Shown: positions 1 to 55,948 of the stretch, one piece after another | Numbering within the stretch: position 1 is the first letter of the stretch | Layout of the letters: each line of letters opens with the position of its first letter | Virus record (IMG/VR): IMGVR_UViG_3300042401_002002 | DNA: 64,000 bases | Strand: one strand, 5' to 3' | Source of the DNA: a virus | Lineage: Duplodnaviria; Heunggongvirae; Uroviricota; Caudoviricetes | Translations under genes and position numbers: made by a program | Notes under the pieces: generated by a model | Database searches by the model: none | What the model was told of the DNA's origin: nothing | The model's input: the letters and a program-made list of their open reading frames with translations, nothing else

Positions 1-206
1 GTACCGATAATAATAGATTAAACGCAAGGGCGGATTGTTCCAAACGGGACATGAAACAGATAGAGGGTTAGCAGTTAACCCAGTGTGAGTTCAAAGTCCA
101 CGAAAAGAGAGTAATGGTATTATATACTATGAAATTTTAAACTGTTATACCAAAGTTACCTGTTTCTAACAACAATTTTGTTAATGAAATTAATAAAAGC
201 AAAGGA

Positions 207-350
207 AACAATGTTTCAGGTCCAAAACCTATTACAAACAATGTTGCTAAACCAAATTATAAAAACAACATTGTATTCAAACAATGTTATAAAATAAACA
301 ATGTTGGTCTTGATGTGACATGGACATCAACAATGTTTGCAAACAATGTT
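207..350. repeat. Cluster of AACAATGTT near-palindromic 9-mers (iteron/operator-like)
   Basis: Copies at 207, 237, 280, 297, 329 and 342, a reversed partial copy at 267, and degenerate copies nearby. Several are about 30 bp apart, in non-coding DNA. Confidence 0.6.
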
Positions 351-384
351 TAAAAATAAACTTTGTTTGTTGGCACATAAGTGC

Positions 385-407
385 AACCTTTATAATTTGT
401 TTGCGTT
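385..407 (+). promoter_or_regulatory. Conserved 23-bp phage promoter-like motif AACCTTT-N8-TTTRCGTT (first of about 14 copies)
   Basis: Fixed-length motif upstream of gene clusters. Plus strand at about 385, 2525, 3630, 6379, 9326, 10344, 12053, 13685, 38103, 41315; minus strand at about 18103, 21024, 26200, 55983. Confidence 0.7.
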
Positions 408-429
408 AAAGAATGTAAATTAAATAACT

Positions 430-2522
430 ATGGAAACACAACAATTTAAAATAGAATACAGATTACTATTGAAAGATGGTAGTTACATGGAAACAACAAC
501 CTATGTTGCCGCTAAAGATAAAGAAACAGCACTAACTAAGTTAGTTTTATGGAGAAAAACACAATCACCAGAGTTTGATGATATTGGATATTTTAATGTA
601 GAACAAGGTTATAATATAGTTGTATAAAATTTAAAATAAATGAATACACTTAAACTAACAACACCTGTTGAGAACGATGTAGTTTTCAAAAAAGAAATGA
701 TTTTCAAATATATTAATTTACTATTTGAATTAGAAAGAAAGTTTGGTTTGATTAATCTAGATAGTTTATTCAAAAGAGATAGTGAAGATAATATTGAAGT
801 AATTAAAATAAGAGTTACAACAGAGTTTGCTCACTTATCAGGTTTCATTGAACCAAAAAATACTTACAAAGATTGGTTGAGAATTGAAAGTAATTTATTA
901 TCTTTGTTAAACTTATCATTAGTTGAACTAAATGAGTTGTTTGAAGACGACCCACAGGATTTAGTTAAAGATGATATTAAACAATTAATTAGTCAGTTTA
1001 AGAATTTAAATGAATAGTATTTATGAATAACCAAACTAGTAAATTAGAAATTGAAGATATTCAAACTTTATTAGATAATATGTTTTTTAATGTAGAAACT
1101 AGATTAAATGCAAGTACAGGTAATTATGTTTATCTTTCTGTTAATTATAAAGGTGAATATTTTGTTAAATACAATAATCATATCGGAACGTATAGTTTCA
1201 CAACAACCAACCTAGAAGTTGCAGTAAATAAATTTAATAATTACTTAATTTAATAGTAGAAATGGAAAAATTTAGATTAATGTTACGTGAAAGTCTTATA
1301 GTGATATTTTGTATATTTATTGGTTATTGTATTGCTAAATATATTCACAATGATTTTAACCCTACAACAACTGAAAAACATTGTGGTACTATCATTAGTA
1401 AATCAAATGATGAAGTTGCAATAAAACATGGCAGTATGACTCAACTGTTTTTAAATATTCAGTTTGATAAAAAAGGTTTTGAATCAGTTGAAGTTGAACC
1501 TACAACCTACTTTAAGTATAAAGTTGGTGAACGTATTTGTATTGATTTCCAGAAAAATGAAGCGTTTATAGGTATTGGTTTTATTGCATCTTGGTTATTA
1601 ATAATCGTTGTTGCTTATTTCTTTATATGTTGGTTATTTGGATTTATTAAATTTTAAATGGAAATGGATAAAATTAATTTTAAAATATACGATGATGAAG
1701 TGAATGTATCAGTAGAAATTACTGAAGAAAAGAAACAACTAATTGTTGATAGAATTTTACAATATTGTAAAGAATATAATTGTGTTAGTGGTGAAACATT
1801 GCATCAAAATGATAATTGTATTATTTACGCTCCTGTTGTTTTATCAGACATAATTGATGATATTCTTAAATTTGATGTTACTTATGAAGAATAATATAAT
1901 TGGTATTGAACCAATTCCACCAGCAGTGATTAAAGATTATGTTTGTAATCATCACGAACACAATCCACCGCAACATTTGTACATACCAGCAGGTAAAAGT
2001 TATAAACACGTTTGTCCAGCTTGTGGAAAAGAAACAGTTGTAAGTAGTTTAAACATAATGTTTTAAGTTATGCAAACAAATTTATTTGAAAACTGTGAAG
2101 TAAATGTGGAAAATGTTTCTAGGTTTACTTTAATTAAACAAATTGAGTTAATCAATGAACATATTATAAAGCTTGAAAATAAGAAATCAACTCTTAAACA
2201 AGCTAAAAGAATATTGGTTTTTGATAAACTAATAGAAGAATTAAAAGAAGAAGGAAATAAATTATATTTTAAATTAAACTAATAAAATTATGGACTTAAC
2301 AGAATTGTTTAAATGATAAAATTTATAATTACCAACCTAGTTGCTGTAATATTTCTATCAATATATAATATTGCAGGTTTGTTCGGTATATTTATTGCAA
2401 TGATTAAAAACTTAGCTGAAGTAATAATAGCTTTATTTGAGAATCTAACTGATTTGATTATACTTAATTTCGTAACTTATTACGAATATATTGAACAAAT
2501 GAAAAAAATTGATAAAAAGTGA
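430..2522 (+). CDS. Cluster of 8 small hypothetical early-type genes (430-627, 640-1017, 1023-1253, 1262-1657 membrane protein, 1658-1894, about 1884-2066 with CxxC, 2070-2282, 2313-2522)
   Basis: Tightly packed co-oriented ORFs following the promoter motif. No recognisable families. Confidence 0.65.
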
Positions 2523-2551
2523 AAAACTTTATGTTTTGTTTGCGTTAAAGA

Positions 2552-2859
2552 TTATGTCCTAAAAACTATACAAATTATTAAAATTTATACAGTTAATTTT
2601 ATAAAAGGTTTGGAACACATCCCTTACTTTTATTGGGTTGAACAATAACCCACTATCAATTATCTTACTAACGTAAGAATCAAAGACTACTTTTAAATAA
2701 AATGTATTTTAAAAAGATAGAATTAACATAAAATGGTTAGTAATTGTTAATTCTATCCCCAACAATGAAGTCTATTCATTAGTTGTACCATTTAATTTAA
2801 ATAGTAAAAAAGTATTAAAATAATTTGATATTATAAAATAAAATTAATAGATTCGTATT
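2552..2859 (-). mobile_element. Non-autonomous, tnpB-less derivative of the IS200/605 element (probable stand-alone omega-RNA locus)
   Basis: 2552-2694 is nearly identical to 53481-53648 (right end plus tnpB 3' region) with one internal deletion. About 2797-2859 resembles the element's left end at 54837-54895. Confidence 0.8.
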
Positions 2860-2885
2860 CTATATAAACAAATAATAAAAACATT

Positions 2886-3589
2886 ATGCAAGAATATTAT
2901 AAATGTAAATCTGATGAATATAGTACTTTTACAAAAGGAAAAATATATTCAATTGAATCAATCGGTAAATATTTAACAATTAATCCAGAAGATTGGTCAC
3001 CAGCATTACCATTCCCTGAAATTAAAGAAATCTTAGATTGTATTGAAAATGGTACAAATAAAACTAAGATTGTTAAAGCGTTAAAACAGTGGTCTAAGAC
3101 TAGAAAATAAAAAATGAAAAAATCAGATATTTTAAAAAATTACAGGTTAACCAAGCTTGATGAAAATACGGTTTTCATCAGTAATTCACATTTTGACTTT
3201 GCTTTTACTAGAGCCGATTCAATTGTTAAAGATGAATTTAAAGGACAATACAGGTATGTTGGTGGTTTACAATGTAATTATCATAAAGAATCACCTGAAT
3301 ATAAAAACCTGGAAAATTGGTTGTGCGAGATTGCTGAATTTGTTTTAAACATTAAACGTAAATAAATATGCAAGAAGAAAAACTAATTTCGATTTTACAA
3401 GATGTTGCTTTAGGAACTTTAACTGTTATTGAAGCAAAAGAAATAATAACTGAATTATATCCTTCTAAAGAGTACCCTTTTAGATTTGAATATATAGATA
3501 AATTCGGTAATGAAAGATATAAAATTGTTAAAGCCTTTTCTGAAGAAGAAGCTGTGATTATATTTAGAACATTTATCAACAACAAATAA
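2886..3589 (+). CDS. Three small hypothetical genes (2886-3110, 3114-3365, 3368-3589)
   Basis: Packed co-oriented ORFs with 2-3 nt gaps. Confidence 0.65.
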
Positions 3590-3814
3590 AAGATTAGTTA
3601 AAATAAACAAAATAAGTTTGATTTAATACAACCTTTATCTTAAAATTACGTTAAAATATTTATGTTAAAAATTCAATTACCAAGAACTGTTCGTTTAATA
3701 TTAGAAAACGGTTCTTTTGGTTCAAAGAAAGAACCTAATAATAAATCAATCAACAAAGATTTGCTTGAGATTCAAGAAAAATTTAAAAAGTTAAACTATA
3801 AACTTTAGAATATT

Positions 3815-4930
3815 ATGTTGTATAAAAGAACAAAAACTGGTGCTGTTCAAGTTTGGTCAGTTGAAGTAGAAGAAAACAAATTCAGAACTGTTGAAGGTCA
3901 ACTTAATGGTAAAATGACAACTAGCGAATGGACAACTTGTGTTGGTAAGAATATAGGTAAGACTAATGAAACTAGTCCAGAACAACAAGCTATTCTTGAA
4001 GCCAAAGCTAAAGAAGTTAAGAAACTTGAATCAGGTTATGTTGTTGACATTAACACTATTGATACAGCAAAGGCTGAGTTAATTTCACCAATGTTAGCTG
4101 AAAAGTTTGAGAAAAACTACGTTACTGGTCAAGAAGCGATGTATTATTCTCAACCAAAATTAGATGGAATGAGAATGGAAACAACTGTTAATGGAACGTT
4201 TTCAAGAAACGGTAAACCTGTTGTTTCAGTACCTCATTTGGATTTAGAACTTTCTAAGTTTTTTGAAGAATTCGGTGAAGAAATTGTGGTTGATGGTGAA
4301 ATTTACAATCACGAACTGAAAGCTGATTTTAATAAATTAATTTCTTATGCTAAGAAAACTAAACCAACTGCTGATGATTTAGTTAATTCTGAAAAGTATC
4401 TTCAATATCATATTTATGATATGCAGTTTAAAGATAAACCTAATATTAGTTTTGACGAAAGATTTTTATTATTATCTAATTTCTTTGATAACAACAACTT
4501 TAAGTATCTTAAGTTAGTTGAAACAATTATCGTAAACGATGATGCACATTTAGATGAATTATACACTAAATACCTTGAAGAAGGTTATGAAGGTCAGATG
4601 GTTAGATTAGTAATGTCTAAATATGAAAACAACAGAACCAAGTCTTTACTTAAAAGAAAAGAGTTCATTGACGAGGAATTTATTATTACTGATATTTCTG
4701 AAGGTACGGGAAATAGAAGTGGAATGATGGGAAGAATTCATTTGGTTGATAAAGATGGTATACACTTTGAATCTGGTTGTCGTGGTAATCATGATTATTA
4801 TAAAGAACTGTTAATTAATAAACATTTATATATTAATAAGACTGCAACTTGCAGATACCAGGGACGCACACCAGATTTAAGTTACAGATTCCCTGTTGTA
4901 ATTCAAATAGCTAGAGAGGAATATGAATAA
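3815..4930 (+). CDS. lig: ATP-dependent DNA ligase
   Basis: PMLA, the adenylation motif QPKLDGMR, VDGEIY, EGQMVR, LLKRK and a C-terminal RFP OB-fold motif. Confidence 0.92.
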   Translation: MLYKRTKTGAVQVWSVEVEENKFRTVEGQLNGKMTTSEWTTCVGKNIGKTNETSPEQQAILEAKAKEVKKLESGYVVDINTIDTAKAELISPMLAEKFEKNYVTGQEAMYYSQPKLDGMRMETTVNGTFSRNGKPVVSVPHLDLELSKFFEEFGEEIVVDGEIYNHELKADFNKLISYAKKTKPTADDLVNSEKYLQYHIYDMQFKDKPNISFDERFLLLSNFFDNNNFKYLKLVETIIVNDDAHLDELYTKYLEEGYEGQMVRLVMSKYENNRTKSLLKRKEFIDEEFIITDISEGTGNRSGMMGRIHLVDKDGIHFESGCRGNHDYYKELLINKHLYINKTATCRYQGRTPDLSYRFPVVIQIAREEYE

Positions 4931-5016
4931 AATAACTAATATTTCTTTTGCATTTATAAATTTAATCATTTACATTTGCACAGTAATCAAGTAATAACAA
5001 TTTAAATCAATTAAAA

Positions 5017-6318
5017 ATGTCTTCAGTAGAAGTATTGGATTATCCACAAGTAACAGAACAAGTTTCATTAAAAGTAGAACAGGAATCTATGTCAGAGAAA
5101 ACAACAAAACCAATGATTGACCCAGCAAGGGTTAAAACGTTAGACCCATTAGCAAAAGCTATTTGGCAAAAAATTGCACCAAGAGATGGAACATTAGCTT
5201 TATATGGTGACGTAGGTGAAACTAAGTCAGCGACTTTTACAGCAATGTGTGAACATTTAGGTATTAAATACATTCGTAAAGATTTAGCTACTATGGATGA
5301 ATCTGATTTATCAGGTATTCCAAACAAAAGAGTTAGTCAAAAAACTAATTTGTCTTATGTAGAAAATTTATTACCTCAATATATTGTTGATGCAATTGAA
5401 TCAGAAGTGCCTGTATTAATTGTATTTGAAGAGGTTAATAGATGTAATCCTTACACTAGAGCGGCTTCTTTAGGTGTAATTAATGAGAAAATTGTAAGTA
5501 ATGTTTTATTACCTGACCATGTTTACATTGCTGCCGCATTAAATATTGGTGATGCTTATGAAGCTGAGATTGAAGATTTAGGTCTTGCAATGAAAAACAG
5601 ATTTATTTGGCAGAACTTTAAAATCTCAACAGATAGTTGGATTGATAGATATGCACAAGATAATGTACATCCTTATATTGTAGCATATTTAAAAGCTAAC
5701 CCAGAAAAAGCTAAATTCTCTGAAAGAAGAGATATTAAAGGTGATGAATTAGCATTTGAAACATTCAGAACCTGGACCTTCTTAAGTTCATATTTAAAAC
5801 AATTTGATACTTTGGATGAAGTTATTGATGCTGTTAGAGGTAGTAAACACGTTAGAAAATCAGGTAAAACTGAATACTATGGTGGTGCTGAGTGTTATGT
5901 AGGTCAATCAGAAAAAAGTGCGTTCTTAACATTCCTTGAGAATATGAAAACGGTTACACCTGATAATGTATTGAATGAGTTCCCTAGATATGAATCAATC
6001 ATTCAAAATATGGCAAGTACTGAAAGATTTCAAATCTTAGAACACTTTAAAGGTACCACAATAAATCATTATGATTTAAATAACCTTAAACCTAATCAAT
6101 ATGATAATCTTAAAAAATTCATGTTGAAATACATTGACGCTGATGTGTTGGTTGGTTTTATTGATGAAGTTACAATGAAATTAATGAAAGGTTTAACACC
6201 TGCTGAAATTAAAAAACTAGGGTTTATTAAATTCCTTAGAGACCCTGATTTAGCTGAAAGAAAAAACCAAGTTGTTGGTGTTTATAAATCATCAATTGGT
6301 AAAAACATGATTAACTAA
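5017..6318 (+). CDS. MoxR/AAA_5-like ATPase
   Basis: Variant Walker A GDVGETKS, DLSGIP, Walker B LIVFEEVNR, AALN sensor and AMKNRF arginine finger. Confidence 0.75.
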   Translation: MSSVEVLDYPQVTEQVSLKVEQESMSEKTTKPMIDPARVKTLDPLAKAIWQKIAPRDGTLALYGDVGETKSATFTAMCEHLGIKYIRKDLATMDESDLSGIPNKRVSQKTNLSYVENLLPQYIVDAIESEVPVLIVFEEVNRCNPYTRAASLGVINEKIVSNVLLPDHVYIAAALNIGDAYEAEIEDLGLAMKNRFIWQNFKISTDSWIDRYAQDNVHPYIVAYLKANPEKAKFSERRDIKGDELAFETFRTWTFLSSYLKQFDTLDEVIDAVRGSKHVRKSGKTEYYGGAECYVGQSEKSAFLTFLENMKTVTPDNVLNEFPRYESIIQNMASTERFQILEHFKGTTINHYDLNNLKPNQYDNLKKFMLKYIDADVLVGFIDEVTMKLMKGLTPAEIKKLGFIKFLRDPDLAERKNQVVGVYKSSIGKNMIN

Positions 6319-9400: not shown

Positions 9401-11195
9401 ACCGATTGAGTATGTTGTTTTTATAACAACAACTAATAAAGATGATAAAGCAGAAGGTGAACCGGGATTTTATAATGGAACTAATTATGATGCTTTATAT
9501 AAATTTGAATTTAAAGTTAATAGTGGAGTTGAAATGTCAGTTATTAATGAAGCTTTAGTTTATTTCTACGAGAAATTCTGGACCAACTCAACAAATAATA
9601 CAGATTTGTTTGAACAAGAATTAGATAAATTTAAAAAAGGTTTGGATAAACTTCAATCTGAAACTTACTGTAATGCCTTTCCAGATAAATACGAAATTAT
9701 TAAAAATTTTGAATCAGAACTAAGACAACAATTATCATGTAATGATAAAACTGTAGATGAATTTAAAAGATTAAACATTGATAATAAAATAAATTATCTA
9801 AGTGATTTAGGTTGTAATCTTGATTATTTTGTTGTACCAAAGAAATTTATTAATAAATTTGAAACTATTGAGATAAATTATCTATGACCTTCAGTTTATC
9901 ACCAAAAGAGCAAGAAGCCTTAGCAGAATTTAAAGCTAAGGCTTTAAAGAAATATAAAAAGAAAGGTAAACCTATTTCTTTTACAATTATGTTCACGCCA
10001 ACAGCAATAGGAAATGTTGTTGAAGTGAAAAGTTCGGCTTCGGATGAAATTAAGGACATAACTGATTACAACACATGGTAGATATTAAAGTATTTGTAAC
10101 TTACGAAGTTTGGAAAGATAGAACTATCAAACAATTTACCAAAACAGATGTTCTTTCAGTTGAAACTGATACAGATTCTATTAATAACCTAGTAAACCAA
10201 ATAAGATATTATTTCAAAGATGATGTTAAAGAACCAAACATTTATAATTGGAAAGTAAACATCATTGAAATAGTAACAGGTAAGTTGGATAACTTTACTT
10301 TAGAAGATTTAAATAAATTAGAAATATTATTGTAAAAAAACGCAACCTTTATGTTTTGTTTGCGTTAAAGAGTGTATAAACCAAAACCACTAAGTAAAAT
10401 GAGAACTATATTAATTATTGTTTTAGGTATTATCATTGTATGCATGTACTTAAAGATAGAAGTAAAAGTGAACAAAGATTCAAAAGAATATAAAACGGCT
10501 GTTGACACAACTCAGAAAGTTGTTAATAAATTATTTGATTCTATAAAATAGTAAACTATGAAAATTAAAGAATGTGTAGTAATTGATTCATGGTTATTTA
10601 ATCGTTTAATAGAAGAATTAAATAATTCAGATAATGACGATTTAGCTTGTACTTTACGTATAGAATCAAAACCGTTAGAACCAATCATAAGAGATGCTTA
10701 TAACGCAGGTAATGATTGGAATGAAGATATTGAAGGTTATTTGAATAATAAAGAAATATGAAAAACACAGAAAAGTATCCAGAACTATTAAAATTAGTTG
10801 ATTTATCAGATAGTGACATAACAATAAGTCAACAATTCTTCCCTAAATATTTAAATTTAAATGATTTATCTAAAGTAGAAGCGTTTGAATTAGGTATTAT
10901 AGCAACTGAATTTGTTTATAACATAAGGACTTTGAAAGAAAGATTAGCTGAAGCTGATAAAGTTAAATATAAGGTTTCAACTAATAATTATGTACTTAAG
11001 AAATTAACAACATATCCAGGTTTGATTGATTTCTTAATTAAAGAACTTGAAAATTCGTTTAATAATTTATCTGAGTTAGAAAAATATGAATATGTTAAAA
11101 CGAACCCTTTCAGTTATTTTAAACCAATTAAAGATGATAAAGTAGCTGTTAGAAGACAAAAACTAATGTTTAATCTAATTAATTTTGAAAAGTAA
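6431..11195 (+). CDS. Run of hypothetical genes (6431-6865, 6858-7289, 7293-7577, 7580-7948, 7951-8562, 8566-9003, 9018-9266 lipoprotein-like, 9387-9887, 9884-10081, 10075-10335, 10558-10761, 10758-11195)
   Basis: Contiguous co-oriented ORFs. The first gene more plausibly starts at ATG 6431, downstream of the promoter motif. Confidence 0.65.
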
Positions 11196-13618: not shown

Positions 13619-13743
13619 GATTAATTAACTATCTTAATAAAAACCTTATCTATTAATTTAGGTAAGGTTTATTCATTTTAATGTAACCTTATTATTTTGT
13701 TTGCGTTAAAGATAATATGTTAAACAATTAAAATTAAATAAAA

Positions 13744-18118: not shown

Positions 18119-20445
18119 TTATGTTGCAAAAATGTTTAGTTTATTTACATCTAAAATGTAAAATATTTCACTGGTACCATTTATCGTTAGTGCATTATAA
18201 ACTCTGGAATGAATAAACCTAGTATTAGTTAGGTTCTTAATGTTTAGTTTCATATTATATAAATTGTTATTTCGTTAATCCAGCGTTCAATAACTATATT
18301 ACGATTATTTACTAAAAGGTTACTAATAGCACTGAATTGGAAGTAATAGCCGTTATTATCAATTTTAAGTTTCATCTTGCGTAAATTAATATTATGTTTC
18401 TATTTTTATTTAAAGTACCGTTTCGATTTACTAAATACCAATAAGTATCAGTATATTTGAAATTAGTAATACCTTGTTTCCAAAGTTGTTCTACTTTAAG
18501 TTTCATCTTCCGTATGTTCTAAGTGAATTTGTAATATTAATTAATTTAAAAGGATATTCACTATAACCTCTAACTAATATCTGAGTAACCATGTTGTCAA
18601 ATATATCAAATAAAAGTCTTCGAGATTTAATTTGTAATTTCATCTTTTATATATTCTAAGTGAATTTTTGTAATTTGTTAAGTTATCATTTAGACTATAA
18701 CCTTGAACTAAAATTTCAGCAACTGTACTATTTTCTTGAATATTTTCGTTACATCTGAAATTTAAACTTAATGAGTTTTCTATTATTAATTTCATCTTAC
18801 ATATATTTTAAGTGAATCTTTATAATTTATAAATTTAAAAGTTTTATCATAAAAATCACTTTTAATTAATATATATGCTATTATGTTGTCATCAACATTA
18901 AAACAAAAACCTAAATCTGTTTTATATACTATATCTAATTTCATCTTTTACAAATTATTAGTTCGTCAGTATTATTAAAACAATTATTAAATGTTTTAAT
19001 TTTACCTATGCTATAGAAATTATAACTACTTGGATAGTATTTTAATTTTATTATTACTAATTTCATCTTTTGAATACATATAATTTATTTGACCAAATAT
19101 TTTTATATTTAATTATTTCAGAAATAGATATAGTTATCTCATCAGTATAATATCTAAAATACAATTGTTTGTTTAACATACATGTTATGAGTTTCATCTT
19201 CTAAATATAGTTAATTGATAGTAGAACAACATTTTATTATTTACAATATCAGTTATATTATAACAGGTAAGATTACTATTATTTCTAAAACACATAATTC
19301 CTATTTTATTTTGTATTAGTAATTTCATCTTGCAAAGATAGTAATTAAATTTATAAATTCAGCTTTTTCTTTTATAACTTCTTTAAAATTATAACTGTTA
19401 TTGGTACTTCGTGAATTAGTTAACCTACAATTCCAGGTTGATAAATTATCAATTCTAAGTTTCATCTTTTGAATACAGCTATGTTGTTATAAAAAAACTT
19501 ATCAACTATTATTTCAGATAAACAATAAGCTGTTGTAGCAGTTCCAGTATTTTTAAGATACCAACTAGTTTTATCGTATATTTTAAGTTTCATCTTCTAA
19601 ATATTAATAATCGGTTATAATATTTAAAATCTATGATAAATTCTAATTCATCTAAATTAAACTTAATTAAATGATAATTTTGGCTTGTTAAGCGGTTATA
19701 AGAAATTTTAAGTTTCATCTTTTATATTTTAATTCTATTGTTAAACACAGATTCATCAACAATTTGTGAGCATTCTTCAGAACGTACATCTATGCTTTTA
19801 GACCAGTCAAATCTAATTCCAAGATTTAATCTATTCTTTAAATTATGCACGACCTCAATAGCTTTCCATTCTTCATCTGTTAGTTCTTTATTAAACAAAT
19901 CAACAATCGGTCCTGTTGTACCTATTATTTCTTCTTCTGGTTCATTAATTGGTAAAGGTTCATTAACAGTTAAGATAGTTAGGTGTTTGTGACGTTTGTT
20001 TAAATATTTATTGATTTCTTTTAAGATAATATTTGTACCAATGAAATATTGTTGCCCTTTGTTAACTTCTGTTTCGTTATCTAGAACATAATTGTAATAA
20101 ATTGTTACTTCGTAGTCACCTTGGTGACTTGTAACTGAACAATCAGTTATTTTTGAATTGGAATTAAGTATTATATTTTTCATCTTTCATATATTAATAA
20201 TTGATTAAAATCTTTAACGTCTATGTTAAATTTTAATTCATATAAATCAAACTTAATTAAAGAATAATTTTGGCTTGTTAAACGTTCGTAAGAAATTTCA
20301 AGTTTCATCTTGCAAATATTGTTATAGTATTTAACCATTCAAGATTTCCTGAATTAAATTGTTTAATAGTAAAAGTAAACATACAATTATTACTATCATT
20401 TCTAAGATAATAATCTTTAGAATAATCATATAATCTAAGTTTCAT
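18119..20445 (-). repeat. MKL micro-ORF array 2 (14 units, interrupted by a 153-aa gene)
   Basis: ATGs at 20445, 20308, 19718, 19593, 19465, 19328, 19197, 19066, 18944, 18795, 18643, 18506, 18375 and 18253. Units are 126-156 nt open frames, mostly ending in the next unit's ATGA. Confidence 0.9.
19722..20183 (-). CDS. Hypothetical protein embedded in micro-ORF array 2
   Basis: 153-aa ORF whose ATG overlaps the TGA of the upstream micro-ORF. Confidence 0.7.
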   Translation of the reverse strand: MKNIILNSNSKITDCSVTSHQGDYEVTIYYNYVLDNETEVNKGQQYFIGTNIILKEINKYLNKRHKHLTILTVNEPLPINEPEEEIIGTTGPIVDLFNKELTDEEWKAIEVVHNLKNRLNLGIRFDWSKSIDVRSEECSQIVDESVFNNRIKI

Positions 20446-26236: not shown

Positions 26237-29107
26237 TTATTTTCTATAAAATATAAAAATTTTATCGTAATCAAACATTTGTATAGCGGTTTCAATATTA
26301 ATTATATTGTAATCACTTGTCGTATAAGTTGATAATGTATTACTTGGGTCAAATATTTTTAATTTCATCTTCTATAAATATTTAATTGACCAATATGTGG
26401 TTGGTCGAGATAATAAAATTTTCCTCTAATTATGTTTATATCTTTTTCATTAAATACTTTAAGATAATCAATATGAAACCTCAAATTATGTAAACCTAAA
26501 TGTTTTAATATGTTTTGTCTTGCAAGTTTCATCTTCTTCTATAAAACGTTAATAAAATATTTCTTTTCCAAAGTTTTATAATGTCAGATAATTCCAATTC
26601 TGAACCATCAGTTACAACCCTATTATACACAAAATAATTTAATTGTTTACCTACTGCAAGTTTCATCTTCTGTAAATTGTTAAAGTGTTTAACCAAAGTC
26701 TTGTGTCGATTTCAAATTCACCCAGTAAATATGAACAACAACTAGTCAAATTAAATCGTGTTTTGTTATATCTTGGTTCTTCTATTTTAAGTTTCATCTT
26801 CTGTAAATTGAAATTACATTTATCCTGTGCTTCATTACTACCTCAATTTTACCTGTCGCTAAACATTTAGCTAATTCACGTTCCGAAAAACCTTCTCCAA
26901 AGTTTTGTAATCTAGTTATCTTAAGTTTCATCTCAAATAAATCACCAATTCGTTTACAAATATATCAATATTTTTTATAACATAACTAATATTAACTGAT
27001 TTTTTTAATACATGCTCATTATTAAACGTTATTGATTTATTAAAATAACCTGGTTTGGAAGCATCTGTTATTGAGAGTTTCATCTTGAATGAATAATTAA
27101 TCTATTTGTATATGTTAATTTTGTGCGAAATCCTTTGCGAGTTATTGTAGAAATAATTGAACTACTTTGTACCTTAATTAAAATAGGATGTATTTTAAGT
27201 TTCATCTTACAAATATATTTATTGTATTATTTAAAGGATAACCAAATGATATCACTAAAGTATTAACTGAACTATATAATTTAGTTGTATTAAATTTAGT
27301 TGGTACTAGAGTATGCATGTTATCAATGTGGTTAAAAACCATGTCTGTTATATTTACTATCTTAAGTTTCATCTTCTACTATAAATTAAAATTATATTTT
27401 TGTCGTATGGATTTGTTTCGTAACCCACATACAGACTGTGAAGTTCCTGAAAACTTATATAATACGCTGAGTTACTTACATCAAATATCTTAAGTTTCAT
27501 AAACGTACATAATATTTAGTTCTTTATTTTCTATGTCAAATTGATGGTAACTATTATCAATTAATACTGTATATATCCAACTAGTACTAAATGGTCCAGG
27601 TGATAAGTAAAGTTTAAGTTTCATCTTACATATAACATTAATTCATTGCGAATGCTTTTAAAATATTTAATTTTTGATACTGTTATTATATTAAAATAAC
27701 TTGAGTTAATGAATTTCACACCTACAAAACAAGTTATTTCTAATCTCATTTTGAAAGAATTATTAATGTGTTTAAATTTATTAATTTAACTTGAAAACCT
27801 TTACGTGTTAATACAGGTATGATTGAACTATATTGAATCTTAGTTAGAACAGGGTGTATTTTAAGTTTCATCTTTTGTATATTTTTATTCTATTAAAATC
27901 ATCGTCAAACATCATTGCGAATTCACCTGTTTCATTATGGTAACCTATTGTCCAAATTACATTAAATTTCTCATAACCATAAATGTCGTGTTTTTCTATT
28001 AATATTTTCATCTTTCACAAATATAAATTAAGTTAGTTATTTTATTATCTATTTTATGATTTGAATTTAGTACTAAATATTTATATAACCAACTATCATT
28101 AAATATATATTTAGAATGTTCTGAATAATCATGTAATTTAAGTTTCATCTTTTGTAAACTGTTATAATGTTACAGTATTCTTCACGTTGAAATAACGACC
28201 AAGTTCTAGCTCCGTTTATTAACATCCAACCTAATGATGTTAAATTAAAATTTTGATGATGTTGATTAAACATTTTGTCAATATTAAGTTTCATCTTTCG
28301 CTATTTTTATAATAAACGACAATATTGTTTTTGGACCTGTAGTCAAATGAACTGAACGGATAAACAAAATATAATAATTTGTTTAATGTAGTATCCCAAA
28401 CAGAATGACCCAATGTTCTTTTGTCTATGTTTAATTTCATCTTACATTTATTACAATATAATTTAAATCTTCATTATTAATATCAAAACTACCTGGTTTA
28501 ATTAAACATTCACAATGCCAAGTGTTTTTAAAGGTAAGGTAAGCATCATGCGAGCAATCGTATATTTTAAGTTTCATCTTTTGTAAATTTCTATATGGTT
28601 ACAAAAACCATTATCTAAATTAAATTTCACTTTTTCAGTTAATAAATTATATATAGTACTATGTTCAAAATTTTTATAAACATGATTAGTAAATTTCAAT
28701 ATTTTAAGTTTCATCTTCTATAAACTGTTATAACATTTAAATCATCTTTATCAATCGTATAATTATGAATACCTAGAAATACATGACATATCCAAGTTTC
28801 ATTAAACATTTTACTGTAATTCACTACTTTAAGTTTCATCTTTTGTAAATTTTAATATGATTTAAATCCCCGGAAATAATACCAAATTTATTTTGAGTAA
28901 GTAATTCAAATTGCCATTCGTTTTGGAACCTATATTTTGAATAGTTTCTTATTGTTAATCTCATCTACTGTAAATAATTACTTCATTAAGAAACTCATAT
29001 TTGTTAGTGATTACCCAGTTAATATTCATCTCAACACTTTTGATGTTATTATTTGTAAATCTAAGGTTTGTGTTGTTATTACCTATATTATCTATTCCAA
29101 GTTTCAT
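26237..29107 (-). repeat. MKL micro-ORF array 4 (21 consecutive units)
   Basis: ATGs at 29107, 28964, 28839, 28714, 28577, 28440, 28294, 28148, 28011, 27871, 27749, 27624, 27500, 27372, 27205, 27083, 26931, 26797, 26666, 26532 and 26368. Example 26797-26663: MKLKIEEPRYNKTRFNLTSCCSYLLGEFEIDTRLWLNTLTIYRR. Confidence 0.92.
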
Positions 29108-29424: not shown

Positions 29425-32079
29425 TTAAAAGTGATAAGTAAAATACCCACAATCATAAATTGAAAATACATTACATTTAGATAAGAATTCTTCATCAGTC
29501 ATCCCGTCTTTATATTTACGTTTATGTAAATAATGTGTTTTGTAATGTTCTACATTAATATCATTAAACCTTTTATAACCTTTCATATAAAACCTTTTTG
29601 GTTCACTATGATTAACTGAGACACTTATCTTTTTAAATAAATTATTAGTTTCACTAAACCATCTTTTATCCAAAGTAACACATTTTATGTTGTTTTCTTT
29701 AATGAAATTAATAATCAAAGTTTCTAAGTTAACTATTTTATAAACAGGATTAACCAAAACTTCTTTAAGTTTACTACCCTTAACGGTAATAGCACCAAGT
29801 TTCTTATTACCTTGTTTAATGTAAAACAACTTATCGTAGTCCTGTGTTATTTGTAAACTTAATTTGTTAACTAAAACATCTTCTATGTTTGTTGTATTTT
29901 CTATTTTAGCATCACTCACAACAACTTTGTCTTTTAGTTGATACAAACTATCAACACTTAATAAAAACTCCTCAGATGTTTTAAAATCAAGCATCTTGAA
30001 GTAATTAAAATCAGAACCAACATATTTATCTACATTGAATAACTCCAGTATCTTGTTGAAAATTAAATATTCTTTGTTTAAATATTCATCCTCAAAAATA
30101 TGGATTAATCTATAACCATTAGCTTCAACTTCATTGGTCTTATCTAAATGATAATTTACATTTTGACCTTTATAATATTTATCCGAATGCCACAGCAAAC
30201 CATTGTACTCAATGCCGATTTTGTATTTATGTGACAATACATCAACCTCGCCAGAAGGAATAAAATCTCTTGGGTTACTTAATACATCTTTATCAATGAA
30301 ACCTTTAACAAATCGGTTGATTATTCTTTCTGGAATAGAACTGTTTGATGGACGAGTTTCAACTCCGTTAAGTTTTAAGTGTTTAATAACAATATGTCCA
30401 GGTACATTTAATGTTTTACCAATAGTAACAGCATCATATTCAAAATCAACGTATTTAGTAATCATTGATTTTATTTGTTCTTCTGTGAATTGGTAAATAC
30501 GTTTATCATAAACTGTTATGTTGTGTTCTTTTAAAATATCAGTTATAATGCCTTTGTGACATTCATATTTTTTAGCTAGTGTATTACTAGAAACACCACT
30601 ATTATATGAATTAAGTATATCAGTTATTTCTTCATCTGTAAATGTAACTTTAAAATCTCTAATTTCAACACCATTAAATACTAAATTACGTCTTAACGTT
30701 TTCTTATTCAGTGAATATTTATCACACAATTCTCTAACTGATGAACCATTATTATATTCTTCAATTAAATTATTCATTAATTCAGATGAATAATGTAAAA
30801 ACCCGTCATTAACACCTATTTCTTTATTAAAGAATGGTGTGTATTTAATGTGTGTTAAACCACGTTTTTTAAATTCACTCGCTATAGTTTTGTAGGATAA
30901 TTTTAGGTCATCAGCTATTTTGTTAATACCCTCACCATTATCATTTCTTTGTTTAATTGATTCAAATAATTCATCAGTTACGTTAGAGAATCTATTATCA
31001 AGAAAATCTAAAGTATATCGTTTGATTATTTTGGTTAATGTTTCAACAGATGTATTAAAATATTCAGCTATATAATCTTTGCTGAGACCCTGTTGATTAA
31101 ATTCAACCATTTTATCTAAATCTTCTTGTGAAAATATTAAACGTTGACCATGCATGTATCGTTTTAATTCTATGTTATTTTTCTCTAACTGGTTAGTTAA
31201 GAAACTGTAAGTATAACCGAATTTTTCACATAACATTCCTAAGCCATGTTCTTCTTCAATATTTAATCTAACTATTTCATTTAGTTCTTCTTTAGTTAAA
31301 TCAACAACACACCTATTGTGTAGTTTTATACCATGTTTTTCACATTCACGTTTGAAAACTGAATCTTTGAATTTTAAATCAATAGCTATTTGCGTATATG
31401 GAATTTTTTCAACATGATGTTTTTGAATAATAATCTCTTTTTCCTCTTGAGTTAATTTTCTTGTACTATCAAAAGTGTTTGGCGTTAATCCTAATTTTTG
31501 TAAAGCTTTACCTACAACCTTGTGGTCAAAACCCATTTCTTTACCGATACCACTGTTATGTAAACCTTGCGAATGAAGTTCTTTTAACTTAATTATATTT
31601 TCATCATCGTATATAGAAACATCTTTATTTGGTTTTATATTTAAATGTTGATATATTCTATGAACAACATCATGACCCAACTTTAACGTTGTTTTCATGG
31701 TAGATATATTACCACCTTCATTATGAAGTTTTAAGAATTTATCTAAAACACTTTGTTGTAAATATTTTTCACCTTTCTCTGTTAAGTCAACACCTAGTTG
31801 TAATAAATCTAATTTAAGTGACTTATTGTTACCTAACCCGCGTTTTTCACTTATAGTTCTCATTGAGAGACCATTTTTAATGTCGATTTTAACTAATTCT
31901 ATAACATCATCAGTTAAATAACTAGGTCTTCTATAATTAGGTAATTTATAACCTGCTGTAAGAAATTGCAATTTAAAGGTATCAATAGCAATATTAAACT
32001 CTCTACTAATTTCTACTAGCAGTTTACCATTTAATAAATAATCATTTGCTTTACTTAATTGTTCTTTTGTCAACTCCAT
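29425..32079 (-). CDS. Multi-HTH-repeat protein with a C-terminal DUF559/Vsr-like (Hef-type) endonuclease; putative homing endonuclease
   Basis: About 11 repeats of about 50 aa (helix-G-S-x-x-x-I-A pattern), then EVDV...IGIEYNGLLWHS...GYRLIHIFEDEY and a terminal IYDCG. Confidence 0.7.
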   Translation of the reverse strand: MELTKEQLSKANDYLLNGKLLVEISREFNIAIDTFKLQFLTAGYKLPNYRRPSYLTDDVIELVKIDIKNGLSMRTISEKRGLGNNKSLKLDLLQLGVDLTEKGEKYLQQSVLDKFLKLHNEGGNISTMKTTLKLGHDVVHRIYQHLNIKPNKDVSIYDDENIIKLKELHSQGLHNSGIGKEMGFDHKVVGKALQKLGLTPNTFDSTRKLTQEEKEIIIQKHHVEKIPYTQIAIDLKFKDSVFKRECEKHGIKLHNRCVVDLTKEELNEIVRLNIEEEHGLGMLCEKFGYTYSFLTNQLEKNNIELKRYMHGQRLIFSQEDLDKMVEFNQQGLSKDYIAEYFNTSVETLTKIIKRYTLDFLDNRFSNVTDELFESIKQRNDNGEGINKIADDLKLSYKTIASEFKKRGLTHIKYTPFFNKEIGVNDGFLHYSSELMNNLIEEYNNGSSVRELCDKYSLNKKTLRRNLVFNGVEIRDFKVTFTDEEITDILNSYNSGVSSNTLAKKYECHKGIITDILKEHNITVYDKRIYQFTEEQIKSMITKYVDFEYDAVTIGKTLNVPGHIVIKHLKLNGVETRPSNSSIPERIINRFVKGFIDKDVLSNPRDFIPSGEVDVLSHKYKIGIEYNGLLWHSDKYYKGQNVNYHLDKTNEVEANGYRLIHIFEDEYLNKEYLIFNKILELFNVDKYVGSDFNYFKMLDFKTSEEFLLSVDSLYQLKDKVVVSDAKIENTTNIEDVLVNKLSLQITQDYDKLFYIKQGNKKLGAITVKGSKLKEVLVNPVYKIVNLETLIINFIKENNIKCVTLDKRWFSETNNLFKKISVSVNHSEPKRFYMKGYKRFNDINVEHYKTHYLHKRKYKDGMTDEEFLSKCNVFSIYDCGYFTYHF

Positions 32080-47088: not shown

Positions 47089-50000
47089 TTATAACTTATT
47101 ATTGTTGTTTAAAAACTCATTTAGTAATTGAACTGTTTCATTTGAATTTTGACTTAAACTTGTTTTGTCTTCAACTTCTTTAAGTAACTGAACCAATTCG
47201 TTATTTGTTTTATTTGCTCTATACAAATATTTTTCTTTTAACTGAAATGGTTCTTGTTCACCTTGTGGTGCAGCTCCACCTGCTGGGTTATTACCTGCAT
47301 CCATTGGTCCACCCATAGCATCGGCTCCTGGTTCAGCAGGTTGTTCACCGTTAACTTGTGCTGGGTCTAATGATGAAGTAATAATACCTCTTTTAATGTA
47401 TTCCTCTAAATCATTGAAAATACCTGATTTTTTAAGAATTAAACCAGCATTTTTAATTTCATCACCAACAACATTTTCAATCATTTGTTGTTTAATATCA
47501 TCAAGTATTTCATCAGCTGATAAACCAAAAATAAGTTTTTTAGCATTTGTTTCTGACATAGGTTTTAAACCTGTTTCATTTGATGTCGTTAATTTAACAT
47601 ATAAATCAACTTTTTGTGTAAATGCTTCAATTTTAAGTATTTCTGATTGTGTAGATGGGTTATTTAAAGTTAATTTATAATCTCTAATATCATCATCACT
47701 GTAACCTAATAAGAATAAATGTATTAATGCAATTTTGTTTAATTCTTGAATCATTGCATTTTGTATTCTCATTACTTTTCTAGAAAATACAATATCTGTT
47801 TGAGCATTATTGTCACCACCACCTTCTCCAGAACCTGAGAAATTAAGTCTGTTTTTAGGTACACCTAAACCTGTAAATAAGTTATCTCTTAAGTATTCAA
47901 TATCTGCAATTTTATCTAAATTATCAGCACCTTCTAAAATATCAATTGGTGAAGGGTCACCAGCGTTTTTAACTGCAACAAATATATCTTCAACACCACT
48001 TGCTGGACTATATTTGTAATTAATTTGTCCTGTTGCAGGGTCAACTATTTGTGATTTTTTAAAATTTGAAATAGTTTGACGCATAAACATTGGGATATCT
48101 GCTGGGTCCATATTACCAGTAGGAACTTTAACTACTTTAACCCTTGCAGCATTAGTTGCTCTATATACTAATTGAGCATCTTCACTCATTTTTAACATTC
48201 TGTAATACATTCTAACAGGTGCCAGTACAGATGTACCATAAGGTAACGTATTTTCATCACCTAATAACCTAAAATGTGCCACTTGGAAGTTAGTATATTC
48301 TTGTCCACCTAATTGCCAAATAAATTTAGTTGTTGGTTTTCCATTTATAATTTTTTCTTGTCTTTCTATTTCAGATGTAGGTAATTGTTTAACATTTACA
48401 ACACCTTTATCTGCTTCAGTCATTACAAATAAAAAATTATCACCAAACTTGCAGTTTGACAAAAATACACCAGAAGTTCTTGAGTATGAACCGTTTATGT
48501 CTTTACCTAGTACTGGAAAATTATGTCTATCATGTTCACCGTTAGGACCAACAGCTTCTAAACAGTAAACATCCGAAGTTTCTTCTAATTTAACAACGGA
48601 AACTACTTTATGGTTTACAACCTTAGTTTTACCTAAAAAAATTGCTTTAGCTCTTATATAATCTTTATCTAATATTAAAGTTGGTTTAATAGATAAAACA
48701 TAATCAAAATAATTTAACTCAGTTTTTCTCTTTAAAACATTTGTTAGTGTTGCATGGTTTATAGATTTAATAATATCTTTTCTTAAAGTATAAGTTTCTT
48801 TAAAAAGATTTATAAATTCAGTATCAATTTTTAATAATTGAGCTAGTTTATTTATACCAACATAATTTTCGTTACTTGCTATAATATTAGTTATATAGTT
48901 TAAACAACTATCAGATATTTCTATTGTCATACCTTTTTTTGTTTTCGCAACAAATTCTTCATTAGACCAATTCTCTAACATTTTTTTTGTACGGATTTCA
49001 TTATGTTCACTGTGTAAATCACTATTATTATATTCATTAAAATATTTTGGATAAATACCTGTCATTTCTTTTGACATTCTTTGTCTACGAGCATCAGATG
49101 TTAGATATTTGTGGATACCTTCTAAACGTTTTTTTGTAATTTCAGGTGAATGTAATACTTGTTTACAAAGGTCTGTGTGTATTTTAAAATGTTCACTGTT
49201 AGTTAATCTTTGTAAATTATGTGGGTGATTATTTAGTTTATTAAAATCAATGTGATGTGTGTCAAAACGTTCATTGACAGTTTTTTCATATTCCAAATCA
49301 CGCACACATTCATGTGCTACCATACGATGAGTAAACTTATATTTACCAGTACTTGGGTTAAATACTTTTTCATAACCACCTATTTGGTCTTGTTTTTTAT
49401 TACTTTTTTTGGTGTAATAAGGCATTAACGATTGACCAGGTGTTAATTCATCAGCTCTTTTAAATGAACCGTTTCTTAACATGTATTCATGGTCTGGTGT
49501 TGTATCTATATATGTACCATCATCTAACGTTACACGATATAATTCACTATTTTTTCTAGTTAAGTCACACCAAACAATTTTACTAGGTACAATAGCGTGT
49601 GTCTTATCCTGAATAGAATAAGACCAGATTTCTTCACCTAATTTAATTCTATCTGATAATTCTTTTATTGTACACTCAGTACCATCTAATAATGGTATCA
49701 TTGAATTCTCTCTAATTGGAGTGTTTCTCACCCAGAAAGGTAGATTAGTATTAATATCTAAAATCTCATAAAATAAGTATTCTAAATCTTCTTTTAGTCT
49801 ATTATTGTTAGAATAAATGTTTAACATTTGACCTCTATCACCTATCGTTGTGGCTTCTTCAGCTAAAACATTTAAAGCTTGAGCTATGATAGGGTATGAT
49901 TCCATCATTTTATATTCAACATAAGCAGGTAATCTTAAAGCATTGGCTTGAACTGCTTGCATATCATTTTGTTGGATGATATGTGAATGTTGTTTATAAA

Positions 50001-52747: not shown

Positions 52748-53480
52748 AATTATAACTCGCCAAATCTATAGTATTTTTACCACATTTGGCGAAATATAAA
52801 AACCTCTCTTATTAATTTAGGGGAGGTTTTTATTTTTGAATAACAATATTTTATTGAAAAACCTCTCTTCATCAGATAAATTTCTTAAATTTAATTGATT
52901 GATAGAGAGGTAAATCCAATTAACTGTATTGAAAGTACTATTAAAACCTGTTTTATAGGTTATTATTATGTTAAGTTTCATAAACTATTAATTTTGTTTG
53001 AATATAAACAAACTTTTTCTGTTATGATTATTTTTTATGAATGTTATCACATCAATGTTGTGAAAACCGTTAACATTTAGATTTAAACCTGTAAGAATAA
53101 AATCATAATCTTCTAAATTAAATATTTTAAGTTTCATCTTAAAAAGATTATTAGTTTGTTATTGTCAAATTTAAATAATTTACCACCATACCATTTTTGA
53201 ATGCCAAAATAAAACCAATGGGTTTTATCAAATGGGTCAAAGTTCTGTGTGGGTTTATCAACTTGTAATTTCATCTTTTTAATATATAAATTCTATCTTT
53301 AGATAATGCGTTAATAGGTTCAGTTTTGTTGTATGCACCAAATATAAATTCAGTCATTAGTAATTCTCCTTGTTTGACATGAAAAACTAGATTATTGCAA
53401 ATGTAGTATTGTAATTTCATCTTTTAAATATAATTATTTTCCCGTTATAATAAATTTTTTGTGAAATTATTTCAAACAAA

Positions 53481-54895
53481 TTATGTCCTAAAAACTATAC
53501 AAATTATTAAAATCTATACAATTAATTTTATAAAAGGATTGGATTTGTTGACACATATTTCAACTCGAATACGTCCCTTACTTTTATTGGGTTGAACAAT
53601 AATCCACTATCAATTATCTTACTAACGTAAGAATCAAAGACTACTTTTCTCATTATGTTAACTGCTCCGTTAACATCTGCGTTTATCAACCCTTTGGCTG
53701 ATTGAAACAAACCACGTTGAACTCTTTTGTTTACTTTAAAGAACCCATTCGGTATCGCTTCGCCATACTTATACAATTTCTCTAATATCAAACTATCTGT
53801 TTTTGAGGTATAACTTTCTTCTGTTTCAACTACTTTTATACCCACCATTTCACACTTATATTTAATCTTATTTAAGAGATTCAAATAAGAAATGTAACAA
53901 AACTTTTGGTTATTAATTCTACCAATATCAATGGAGTCCTTCCATTGTTTGTTGTAACCAACTATTAAATTACCTATCTTATTATCTACCAAATAATCTA
54001 CAATGTACCTACTTACCTTGTGATATATATCATTCAATGTGTTCTCTCTATCTACATATAAATCTTTGATTTGTTCTGTTAGACCTTTTATTTTTTGTTT
54101 ATCTTTAATTGAAGTTAATCTAGCTAATTCTTTGTTAAAGAACTGATTGTAACTTTTAATCTGATTACCGCTAAGTAAAACAGGGTTAGTTAATGAACTA
54201 ACCAAAGTTACTAAGTTATTAACACCTAAGTCAATTGAAGCGTGTTCATCGTAGTTAACATCTTTATTTTCAATATGTTTTTCATAAACAATTTCAACTT
54301 TGATGTAATTCTTTTTAGGAATCAACCTAACTTGATTAAAGTTGATTATATCTTTTTTGTATTTATCAAACTGTGGTACAGCTATTTTTAATGTTTTAGA
54401 TAAATGTATGTATCCATCATGTTTAATAATACATGATTGATTTGGATAAATTAAGTTAGATAAACTATTTTTACGTTTAAAATTAGGTAATTTAGGTTTA
54501 CCTTTATATTTAGTCGGGTTCTTTGACCAATCTCTAATAGCAGCAATGTAAGATTTAACATCTTGTTCAAGAACCTTTAATGTTTGTTGAGCAACTTGTG
54601 CTTTAAGTAATCTATAATTAACAGTACCTTCTAAATTAGTTTTACATTTCATTAACACATCTAACTGTTTATAAAACAAAAACTTACCTTCGTTATTAAG
54701 GTTTGTTTTAACTTCATAAAGAGCCTGATTGTAAAGGTTGTTAGCAACTTTACAAAGTTCAGTTAGATGAGTAGCTGTATTAATGTCAAATGTGTAAACT
54801 AATCTCATTTATTGTGTTATTAAATGTTATTTATTATAAATAGTAAAAACTATTAAATAATTTGATATATAGAATAAATTCTATATATTTGTGTG
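53481..54895 (-). mobile_element. tnpB-only IS200/IS605-family element (IS1341-like)
   Basis: Removing 53481-54895 restores an intact micro-ORF. Left-end hairpin ATATATAGAAT-AA-ATTCTATATAT at 54865-54888. No tnpA in the window. Confidence 0.85.
53528..54808 (-). CDS. tnpB: TnpB RNA-guided endonuclease
   Basis: NNLYNQA, KPKLPNFK, RuvC-I IDLGVNNL, EESYTSK and RuvC-III NADVNGAVNI. Confidence 0.92.
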   Translation of the reverse strand: MRLVYTFDINTATHLTELCKVANNLYNQALYEVKTNLNNEGKFLFYKQLDVLMKCKTNLEGTVNYRLLKAQVAQQTLKVLEQDVKSYIAAIRDWSKNPTKYKGKPKLPNFKRKNSLSNLIYPNQSCIIKHDGYIHLSKTLKIAVPQFDKYKKDIINFNQVRLIPKKNYIKVEIVYEKHIENKDVNYDEHASIDLGVNNLVTLVSSLTNPVLLSGNQIKSYNQFFNKELARLTSIKDKQKIKGLTEQIKDLYVDRENTLNDIYHKVSRYIVDYLVDNKIGNLIVGYNKQWKDSIDIGRINNQKFCYISYLNLLNKIKYKCEMVGIKVVETEESYTSKTDSLILEKLYKYGEAIPNGFFKVNKRVQRGLFQSAKGLINADVNGAVNIMRKVVFDSYVSKIIDSGLLFNPIKVRDVFELKYVSTNPILL

Positions 54896-55285
54896 TTATA
54901 TGTTTTTTCATCACTTCTATAACCGAATTTTGCTGAAGTGGTTAATAATTGTAATTTCATCTTTCAAAAGTCAATAACCAATTAATATGTATTTCTTTAC
55001 GTTCAAGTAATTCATCTAAACAATAAGCAAAACTGCTTGTATCGTTTTTAAATTTAAACATTAAATTGTATTTTGTTTGTAATTTCATGTTCATCTATTT
55101 TAAAATAATAAATTACGATTAAATATATGTAATTTATTTAAATCATTTTTTATTAAGTTAATATTTATTTTTCTTGTAATCTGATTAAATAAATCATCAT
55201 ATTTATTGAAATATTTATACATAACAACATTCCCACGTCTCGTTCTGATATAATATATATCTGGGATTATTTTAAGTTTCATCTT

Positions 55286-55948
55286 CTAATAAGGGTAAAA
55301 TATTTCTTCTGTTTCTATTTCAACATCTTCAAATAACTTAAGTCTTTCTTTAACCGAAAAACCGTTTCCATCTGTTGGATTTATTCTTCCATTACTTGCA
55401 AGAAATTTATAGACACTATGGTAACCTATAAAACCTGCTGATAGAATTCCTGCTTTGGTTATTTTAACACCTTTAATTTTCTTACCAACATACTTACGTA
55501 TTGATTCTTTTAAATATCTATGTTCTAGTGTAAATAAATATTCTTTTATAACCTGGTCCTGTTGTTTTTCTGTAAACAAGGTTGTATCAAATATTTGAAC
55601 ATGACCCAACCATTCATCTTTAATTGTTTTAATAGACCTTTTAATTTTTTTGGTGTTAATCTCTTTAAAACCTAATTCATTTAAACTATTAACCTGGAAT
55701 TGATATTTACCAATACAACCAAATCTGTTTATTATATTTGGTCTATATCTACTTTCTAAATAAGCATTCTTTGATAAGAATGAATCAATTGTTATTATGT
55801 TCGGTTCTTCTATATGTTTTAACATATAAATAAACTGTTTATTAGTAGTTTTATATGTGTTAGCATATACTTTGTTAATTGTTCTATTGTTAGTTGCTAG
55901 TAACACTATTAATAACATTAACTTAAATTTTATAATCATCTTTAACAT
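55286..55948 (-). CDS. Lysozyme-like/transglycosylase-fold protein with an N-terminal hydrophobic anchor
   Basis: LESRY..INRFGCIGKYQF and QQDQ motifs. Confidence 0.6.
   Translation of the reverse strand: MLKMIIKFKLMLLIVLLATNNRTINKVYANTYKTTNKQFIYMLKHIEEPNIITIDSFLSKNAYLESRYRPNIINRFGCIGKYQFQVNSLNELGFKEINTKKIKRSIKTIKDEWLGHVQIFDTTLFTEKQQDQVIKEYLFTLEHRYLKESIRKYVGKKIKGVKITKAGILSAGFIGYHSVYKFLASNGRINPTDGNGFSVKERLKLFEDVEIETEEIFYPY

Follow-up and report, generated by a model that had tools for sequence, protein, structure and literature searches.

The virus record IMGVR_UViG_3300042401_002002 (Caudoviricetes) contains a full-length tnpB element and, some distance away, a second element of 308 nt that has no protein gene and lies a few bases past the core of a promoter-like motif (Table 1). 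This mini-element is best explained as a non-autonomous, gene-less derivative of the phage's own tnpB-only element, similar to the PATEs described in bacteria and belonging to an IS607/IS605-type family. Its right end encodes a predicted stand-alone omega-RNA, and we consider it probable, at roughly 60%, that this RNA would use the phage TnpB in trans to cut alleles lacking the insertion, resulting in homing or retention of the element. Positions given without a contig name refer to the window, which is the whole 64,000-nt stretch of DNA that was analyzed.

Table 1. Coordinates of the mini-element, the full tnpB element and promoter copies related to the predicted guide.
Feature	Position	Strand	Remarks
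Mini-element, gene-less, PATE-like derivative of the tnpB element	2554..2861	-	308 nt, no ORF
Omega-RNA scaffold (predicted)	2554..2694	-	141 nt, tail ...UUUUUAGGACAU
Segment replacing tnpB	2695..2789	-	95 nt; 15-bp hairpin (2714-2759), then U-run on the minus strand
Left-end-like region	2790..2861	-	~80% identical to the left end of the full element (68/85)
CTATTTAAA motif within the left-end-like region	2796-2804	-	
TAM-like motif ATAT flanking the left end	2862..2865	-	
Predicted guide AAUCUUUAACGCAAACAAAA	2534..2553	-	First 20 nt of the right-end flank; overlaps the promoter core
Predicted TAM and target sequence for the mini-element guide			AATCTTTAACGCAAACAAAA
Promoter-like motif CTTTATGTTTTGTTTGCGTTAAAGA	2527..2551	+	Reads rightward into the mini-element and ORF 2886-3110
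Closest self site, promoter copy	13695..13718	-	ATAT and protospacer 13695-13714, single mismatch at guide position 1
Second near-cognate self site	10354..10377	-	ATAC, not ATAT; protospacer 10354-10373, mismatch at guide position 2
Third self site	395-414		TTAC; mismatches at guide positions 2 and 20
Full tnpB-only element	53483..54897	-	1415 nt; left end, tnpB and scaffold 53483-53648
tnpB	53528-54808	-	426 aa, full length; Pfam OrfB_IS605 and Cas12f1-like TNB domain
Guide of the full element, AAUUUGUUUGAAAUAAUUUC	53463..53482	-	Flank after ...GGACAT

The mini-element and the full tnpB element

Both transposon ends are present in the mini-element (left, 2790–2861; right, 2554–2694) with no protein gene between them, and there are no ORFs of at least 40 aa between 2523 and 2885. 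Alignment of 2551–2694 with 53480–53648, comprising the 3′ end of tnpB and the right end of the full element, gives 140 identical columns with 25 nt missing from the mini copy, and 2790–2865 is identical at 61 of 76 positions to the left-end region of the full element (54829–54901). The exact limits are ambiguous by 2–3 nt, reflecting microhomology at the junctions. The initial annotation had described 2552–2694 as a copy of the right end and 3′ region of the tnpB element without tnpB itself, accompanied by a left-end-like region; the alignments and the ORF scan bear out both parts of this description, and support its proposal of a stand-alone omega-RNA locus derived from the phage's own tnpB element.

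The 95-nt segment in the middle of the mini-element has no homolog in the genome or in any of the relative loci compared. Its 15-bp hairpin appears in the computed fold and is positioned between the left end and the scaffold, and a consensus terminator scan called no terminator at this hairpin (2714–2759). An Rfam scan of the window matched no family, and no further mini copies are present in the 69.9-kb record, which thus contains one copy only.

Excision of 53483–54897 restores an in-frame 42-aa micro-ORF of the MKL family ending ...IIIFKR, confirming the ends of the full element. The MKL family itself comprises about 80 tandem micro-ORFs of 33–62 aa that start with MKL(K/N/Q)I and end with ...I(Y/F)(K/R)R; neighboring members are joined by stop/start overlaps at ATGA, almost all of them lie on the minus strand, and they are found within 14676–60523 of the window and in the rest of the record (e.g. 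18119–20445, 26237–29107, and 52817–56856).

The TnpB residues D193, E330/E331 and D378 are invariant in 24 homologs sharing 54–92% identity, and the position of the canonical RuvC-II glutamate is replaced, reading LIVGYN. TnpBs with a 'rearranged RuvC-II' have been described for which structure models point to a compensating alternative glutamate, and some branches of these are virus-specific (PMC10691335). The replaced glutamate of this TnpB fits that class, its catalytic residues are conserved, and nothing suggests a dead, TldR-like protein. The relatives of the TnpB that were collected comprise an 83%-identical copy encoded at L001 on a related phage contig, two of 60% identity (L003 and L004), and 80 loci on viral contigs at about 50%. 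No TnpB closer than 49% identity was found in cellular genomes, and the clade therefore lives mainly in phages. Two loci of the same RNA family (L055 and L061) have a serine recombinase gene (PF00239 Resolvase) that overlaps tnpB, which makes an IS607 type probable for the family; neither a Y1 transposase nor a serine recombinase lies beside the tnpB gene described here or elsewhere in the record, which at 69.9 kb is 38% complete (CheckV). Megablast of window positions 1–6000 against the phage collection gave no match, a distant blastn search with the tnpB region returned two short scaffold matches only, and a single-protein TnpB search of viral contigs returned nothing. As a DNA pattern, the scaffold is absent from viral contigs and species genomes and was found as two tnpB-linked copies in metagenome contigs only.

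The record has a G+C content of 26%, and the locus occurs in sequencing runs of lake and freshwater metagenomes, with no RNA run among them. A 308,574-bp contig codes for a ligase and a TnpB identical to those of the record, and a second TnpB, 92% identical, is encoded both on that contig and on a 265-kb contig; the record probably represents part of a jumbo phage carrying several tnpB elements. Other nuclease-related genes include one on the minus strand (47089–50172) that codes for a 1027-aa portal-like protein with an HNH endonuclease segment (residues ~230–470) ahead of the portal domain, and another (29425–32079, also minus strand) that codes for an 884-aa protein combining HNH/homing-endonuclease domains with DNA-binding ones in a mosaic. 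Selfish nucleases appear to be plentiful in this genome.

The omega-RNA scaffold

A covariance model (R1) constructed from 23 tnpB-linked scaffolds, including the full copy and excluding the mini copy, matches 2694→2554 over model positions 1–156, ending ...ACAT, with 110.5 bits (E 1e-14), and the tnpB-linked copy scores 111.2 bits under the same model. The minimum-energy folds of eight family members have the same layout, with P1 enclosing P1a, P2, a long P3, a 3′ hairpin P4, and the tail UUUUUAGGACAU. RNAalifold analysis of the 23 scaffolds, whose alignment resolves the 5′ half, gives 14 pairs, five of them with double changes (P1, P1a and P2); for P3 and P4 the single-sequence folds agree with one another.

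Of these helices, P1a, P2 and P4 are retained in the mini copy; P3 is shortened to its outer seven pairs, the 25 missing bases all coming from the distal part of this stem, which is of widely varying length in the family, and the closing pairs remain. The possibility raised in the initial annotation that the internal deletion inactivates the scaffold is not borne out, given the R1 score and the confinement of the loss to this variable distal part, and the scaffold of the mini-element is predicted to be complete. It is identical to the tnpB-linked copy at 135–137 of 141 positions (97%) as compared with 80% for the left end, a contrast that would fit constraint on the RNA; alternatively, the scaffolds may be so similar owing to recent origin or to gene conversion rather than to selection. 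Of six differences between the two copies, four are changes in the full copy, with the mini copy agreeing with L001, and two are located at the deletion junction; away from this junction, no substitution is specific to the mini scaffold. Relative to the family consensus, both copies have two U-U mismatches in P1.

At 53603 (position 46 of the full scaffold) the full copy departs from the G shared by the mini copy, L001 and the family consensus; its A introduces an A-C mismatch in P2 and is synonymous in tnpB (GGA versus GGG). A gut-phage contig of the wider TnpB family (L010:2331–3428) has two orphan scaffolds (2441–2557 and 3297–3428) after the tnpB-linked one, the first of them starting 8 nt past the right end of the tnpB-linked scaffold, and orphan scaffolds are therefore not unique to the phage described here.

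Guide, TAM and alleles of the insertion site

The guide in elements of this kind is the DNA adjoining the right end. In the family alignment the right end stops at ...ACAT in more than 20 related elements located at different sites, all of which diverge directly afterwards, the consensus being ...TTTT(N)A(N)(A/G)ACAT followed by unrelated sequence. In this genome the left flank is YATAT and the right end reads ...TTTTTAGRACAT, the mini copy having ...GGACAT at 2554. Because the family alignment fixes the right end at ACAT, the guide begins at 2553 with AATCTTTAACGC (AATCTTT...), two bases earlier than in the initial annotation, which correctly took the right-end flank as the guide and placed it after ...GGACATAA rather than after the true end. 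At one related locus (L069:2340–2513) the terminal 12 nt of the right end (TTTTCATAACAT) occur twice in tandem, and the flank that follows is the same as in L045.

At the left end, ATAT precedes the element in nine of ten independent flanks and CTAT in the other; the flanks counted are those of the mini copy, the full copy, L001, and seven related tnpB-only elements (ATAT in six of the seven). The flanks thus give ATAT in place of the (T)ATAA proposed initially, and it is from flanks that we infer the TAM and seed rules used for this TnpB. TTGAT-like and (T)ATAA flank motifs were dropped as candidates, as was a right end at ...CATAAT, since the family alignment and the empty sites fix ACAT and ATAT. 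For the guide of the full element, no sites with fewer than four mismatches are present in the genome.

Three metagenome contigs from different samples (L186, L187 and L188) share the gene order of this region, including a copy of the downstream gene (ORF 2886–3110, ORF74) with 97% aa identity, and have an empty site. L186 positions 426–1012 correspond to 1941–2555 of the window and L186 positions 1010–1263 correspond to 2861–3114, with an overlap of 3 nt. In a more distant relative (L165), whose ligase is 88% identical, the same promoter is uninterrupted and reads ...GCGTTAAAGATTATATAAAC... The insertion is absent from all four of these contigs with precise ends and no target duplication, and the mini-element is a discrete 308-nt insertion that is polymorphic among close relatives. 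Conservation had been put forward as a check, with absence from relatives counting as a refutation, and the locus is absent from close relatives, which tells against a co-opted repressor. Read on the strand of the element, the empty allele consists of ATAT and, directly after it, 27 nt that match the guide region perfectly, and this allele in the relatives is the only perfect combination of TAM and target known; in the occupied allele, the element separates the TAM from the protospacer.

The occupied junctions are bridged by contigs of two other lake/freshwater runs (X4 and X6; 2017–2024), and no joint skipping 2554–2861 was found in contigs of four runs. Exact patterns of the empty and occupied junctions had no match in viral contigs. 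In run X4, a single contig connects 2153 directly with 2947, so that 793 nt are skipped; its shorter side is only 21 nt, and this weak joint may reflect an artefact or else a variant that lacks the promoter, the mini-element and two small genes. Behind the shared promoter, L165 has a T4 endonuclease V-like gene (L165:51–428; Pfam Pyr_excise) at the position occupied here by the unrelated 74-aa ORF (2886–3110), and the genes that follow are shared; a gene cassette has been swapped at the insertion site.

The promoter-like family to which the guide belongs has about 12 copies in the genome, located upstream of genes and sharing the core TTTGCGTT. The matches to the right-end flank elsewhere in the genome are members of this family and do not occur by chance, and the earlier view of the flank as the core of a repeated promoter motif is supported. 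The exact matches reported earlier also hold, both the 25/25 match at 10347–10371 and the runs of 18, 17 and 13 nt at 13695, 396 and 18098, and the bases adjacent to these four sites (ACAC, ATTA, ACAT and AACT) were given correctly. That the guide corresponds to a promoter core follows from the element having landed at an ATAT a few bases past that core. Every other promoter copy in the genome mismatches the guide at position 1 or 2, ATAT is present at only one of them, and two of the three closest self sites lack it. A search with the 17-nt promoter core returned only unrelated chance matches. The flanking promoter is expected to transcribe the mini-element in the antisense direction, and the description of the locus as late-expressed is not sustained, as the CTATTTA motif is no more abundant than expected by chance (6 occurrences of CTATTTAWA versus 8.8 expected).

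Interpretation and relationship to known systems

We envisage that the element inserted 3′ of ATAT, within the opening few bases transcribed from a phage promoter, and that the left end and the whole omega-RNA gene were kept and tnpB was lost. The mini-element would be transcribed on the minus strand and its omega-RNA loaded by the TnpB encoded 51 kb away, such that the complex would cut DNA containing ATAT and AATCTTTAACGCAAAC..., which is to say the unoccupied allele. This allele would arise by excision and would also be present in co-infecting sibling phages, and repair from an occupied copy would restore or spread the insert by RNA-guided homing and might also exclude competitors to some extent. 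The other promoter copies of the phage itself would presumably escape, all of them having a mismatch at guide position 1 or 2 and most having no ATAT. All of these steps beyond the existence of the element and its target are ones that we infer. Two suggestions of the initial annotation fit the evidence: a chance insertion next to a promoter, in that the guide follows from the landing site, and a guide aimed at equivalent promoters of competing phages, in that the promoter is uninterrupted in close relatives and comes there with ATAT and a target matching perfectly over 27 nt.

Of the steps in RNA-guided homing at this locus, expression is the least secure. The chance-level frequency of the left-end CTATTTA motif tells against such homing, as does the record's having only one mini copy and no transposase or recombinase, although the record is just 38% complete. 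Further points against it are the hairpin and U-run of the 95-nt segment upstream of the scaffold, the antisense transcription expected from the flanking promoter, and the U-U mismatches in P1. These last three features, together with the presence of a single copy in the record and the 20% divergence of the left end, favor the main rival, namely that the locus is an inert relic, a decaying transposon leftover whose RNA is either not made or not used and whose guide matches the promoter without consequence. We regard this as rather unlikely, because the scaffold scores level with the tnpB-linked copy and has no substitution of its own away from the deletion junction, the lost bases come cleanly from a stem of variable length, and the genome also codes for a TnpB of this element family with conserved catalytic residues. 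An effect solely in cis, in which the 308 nt added to the 5′ leader of the operon of ORF 2886–3110 (including the reverse complement of the scaffold) alter its expression and the guide is irrelevant, would agree with the location of the element a few bases past the promoter core and before the ATG at 2886, where the promoter is left intact and the leader is lengthened. It is nonetheless improbable, as nothing indicates selection for such an effect, relatives do without the insertion, and the preserved scaffold would be left unexplained.

The initial annotation had also offered TldR-like repression, in which the orphan guide has been co-opted to direct TnpB to the phage's own early promoters. 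The overlap of the guide with a promoter core repeated in the genome is in keeping with this, as is the copy at 13695–13718 with its ATAT and a mismatch at position 1 only. The catalytic residues of TnpB and the transposon ends are intact, however, unlike those of TldR, the other promoter copies mismatch the TAM-proximal positions 1–2 and two of the three closest have no ATAT, very close relatives have these promoters but not the locus, and an active nuclease directed at promoters of the phage itself would be self-destructive; we therefore consider such a role highly improbable.

The kind of element is not new, as stand-alone omega-RNAs and PATE-like elements have already been described. As relayed in PMC10691335, Altae-Tran et al. 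(2021) describe stand-alone omega-RNAs as mobilized, effector-less, and working in trans with compatible effectors. The locus described here similarly has neither effector nor transposase and has an effector locus of the same family in the same genome, but it differs in residing in a virulent-looking freshwater phage, and in having siblings with empty alleles that contain the exact TAM and target; function in trans is here only predicted. PATEs often encode omega-RNAs that need TnpB from other elements, and TnpB cleaves empty donor sites, restoring the transposon (Meers et al. 2023, 10.1101/2023.03.14.532601). Like the PATE-like IS200/IS605 elements of Geobacillus stearothermophilus, the mini-element has both ends, no protein gene, and a right end encoding an omega-RNA. 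Unlike them, it is present in one copy rather than many, its TnpB family has serine-recombinase relatives of the IS607 type rather than a Y1 TnpA, and its middle 95 nt have no homolog among the sequences compared.

TldRs are nuclease-dead, TnpB-derived RNA-guided repressors, of which phage-encoded examples exist (10.1101/2023.11.30.569447). Here too a guide of the TnpB family pairs with promoter DNA, but TldRs have no RuvC catalytic residues or transposon ends and their guides fit a target beside the TAM, whereas this phage has retained both the residues and the ends, and its own promoter copies mismatch the guide within the seed. A parallel to the proposed process is the 'intronless homing' of SegF and MobE, free-standing homing endonucleases of T4-like phages (PMC13565253). 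There, as proposed here, the nuclease cuts an element-free allele brought in by a co-infecting relative, and the element is copied into it together with its flanks during repair. Unlike SegF and MobE, the system described here would rely for recognition on an RNA guide whose gene is separate from that of the nuclease. Among theoretical cases, a 2026 review (PMC13565253) lists 'transposon non-restorative homing' into co-infecting phages.

The locus provides an unusually clean case, with occupied and empty alleles in near-identical phage backgrounds, a predicted TAM with a perfect 27-nt target on the empty allele, and a catalytically conserved TnpB of this family in the same genome, and RNA-guided homing between co-infecting phages, so far only theoretical (PMC13565253), becomes directly testable. 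For a TnpB clade almost confined to phages, it also defines the TAM (ATAT), the right end (ACAT) and a scaffold trimmed to 141 nt. More tentatively, TnpB may function as a multi-guide homing system, in which gene-less guide cassettes spread among co-infecting siblings and drag neighboring early-gene cassettes with them; we hold this broader idea to be possible but doubtful. If true, multi-guide TnpB homing would be a natural RNA-guided gene drive, and possibly a weapon of competition, among viruses.
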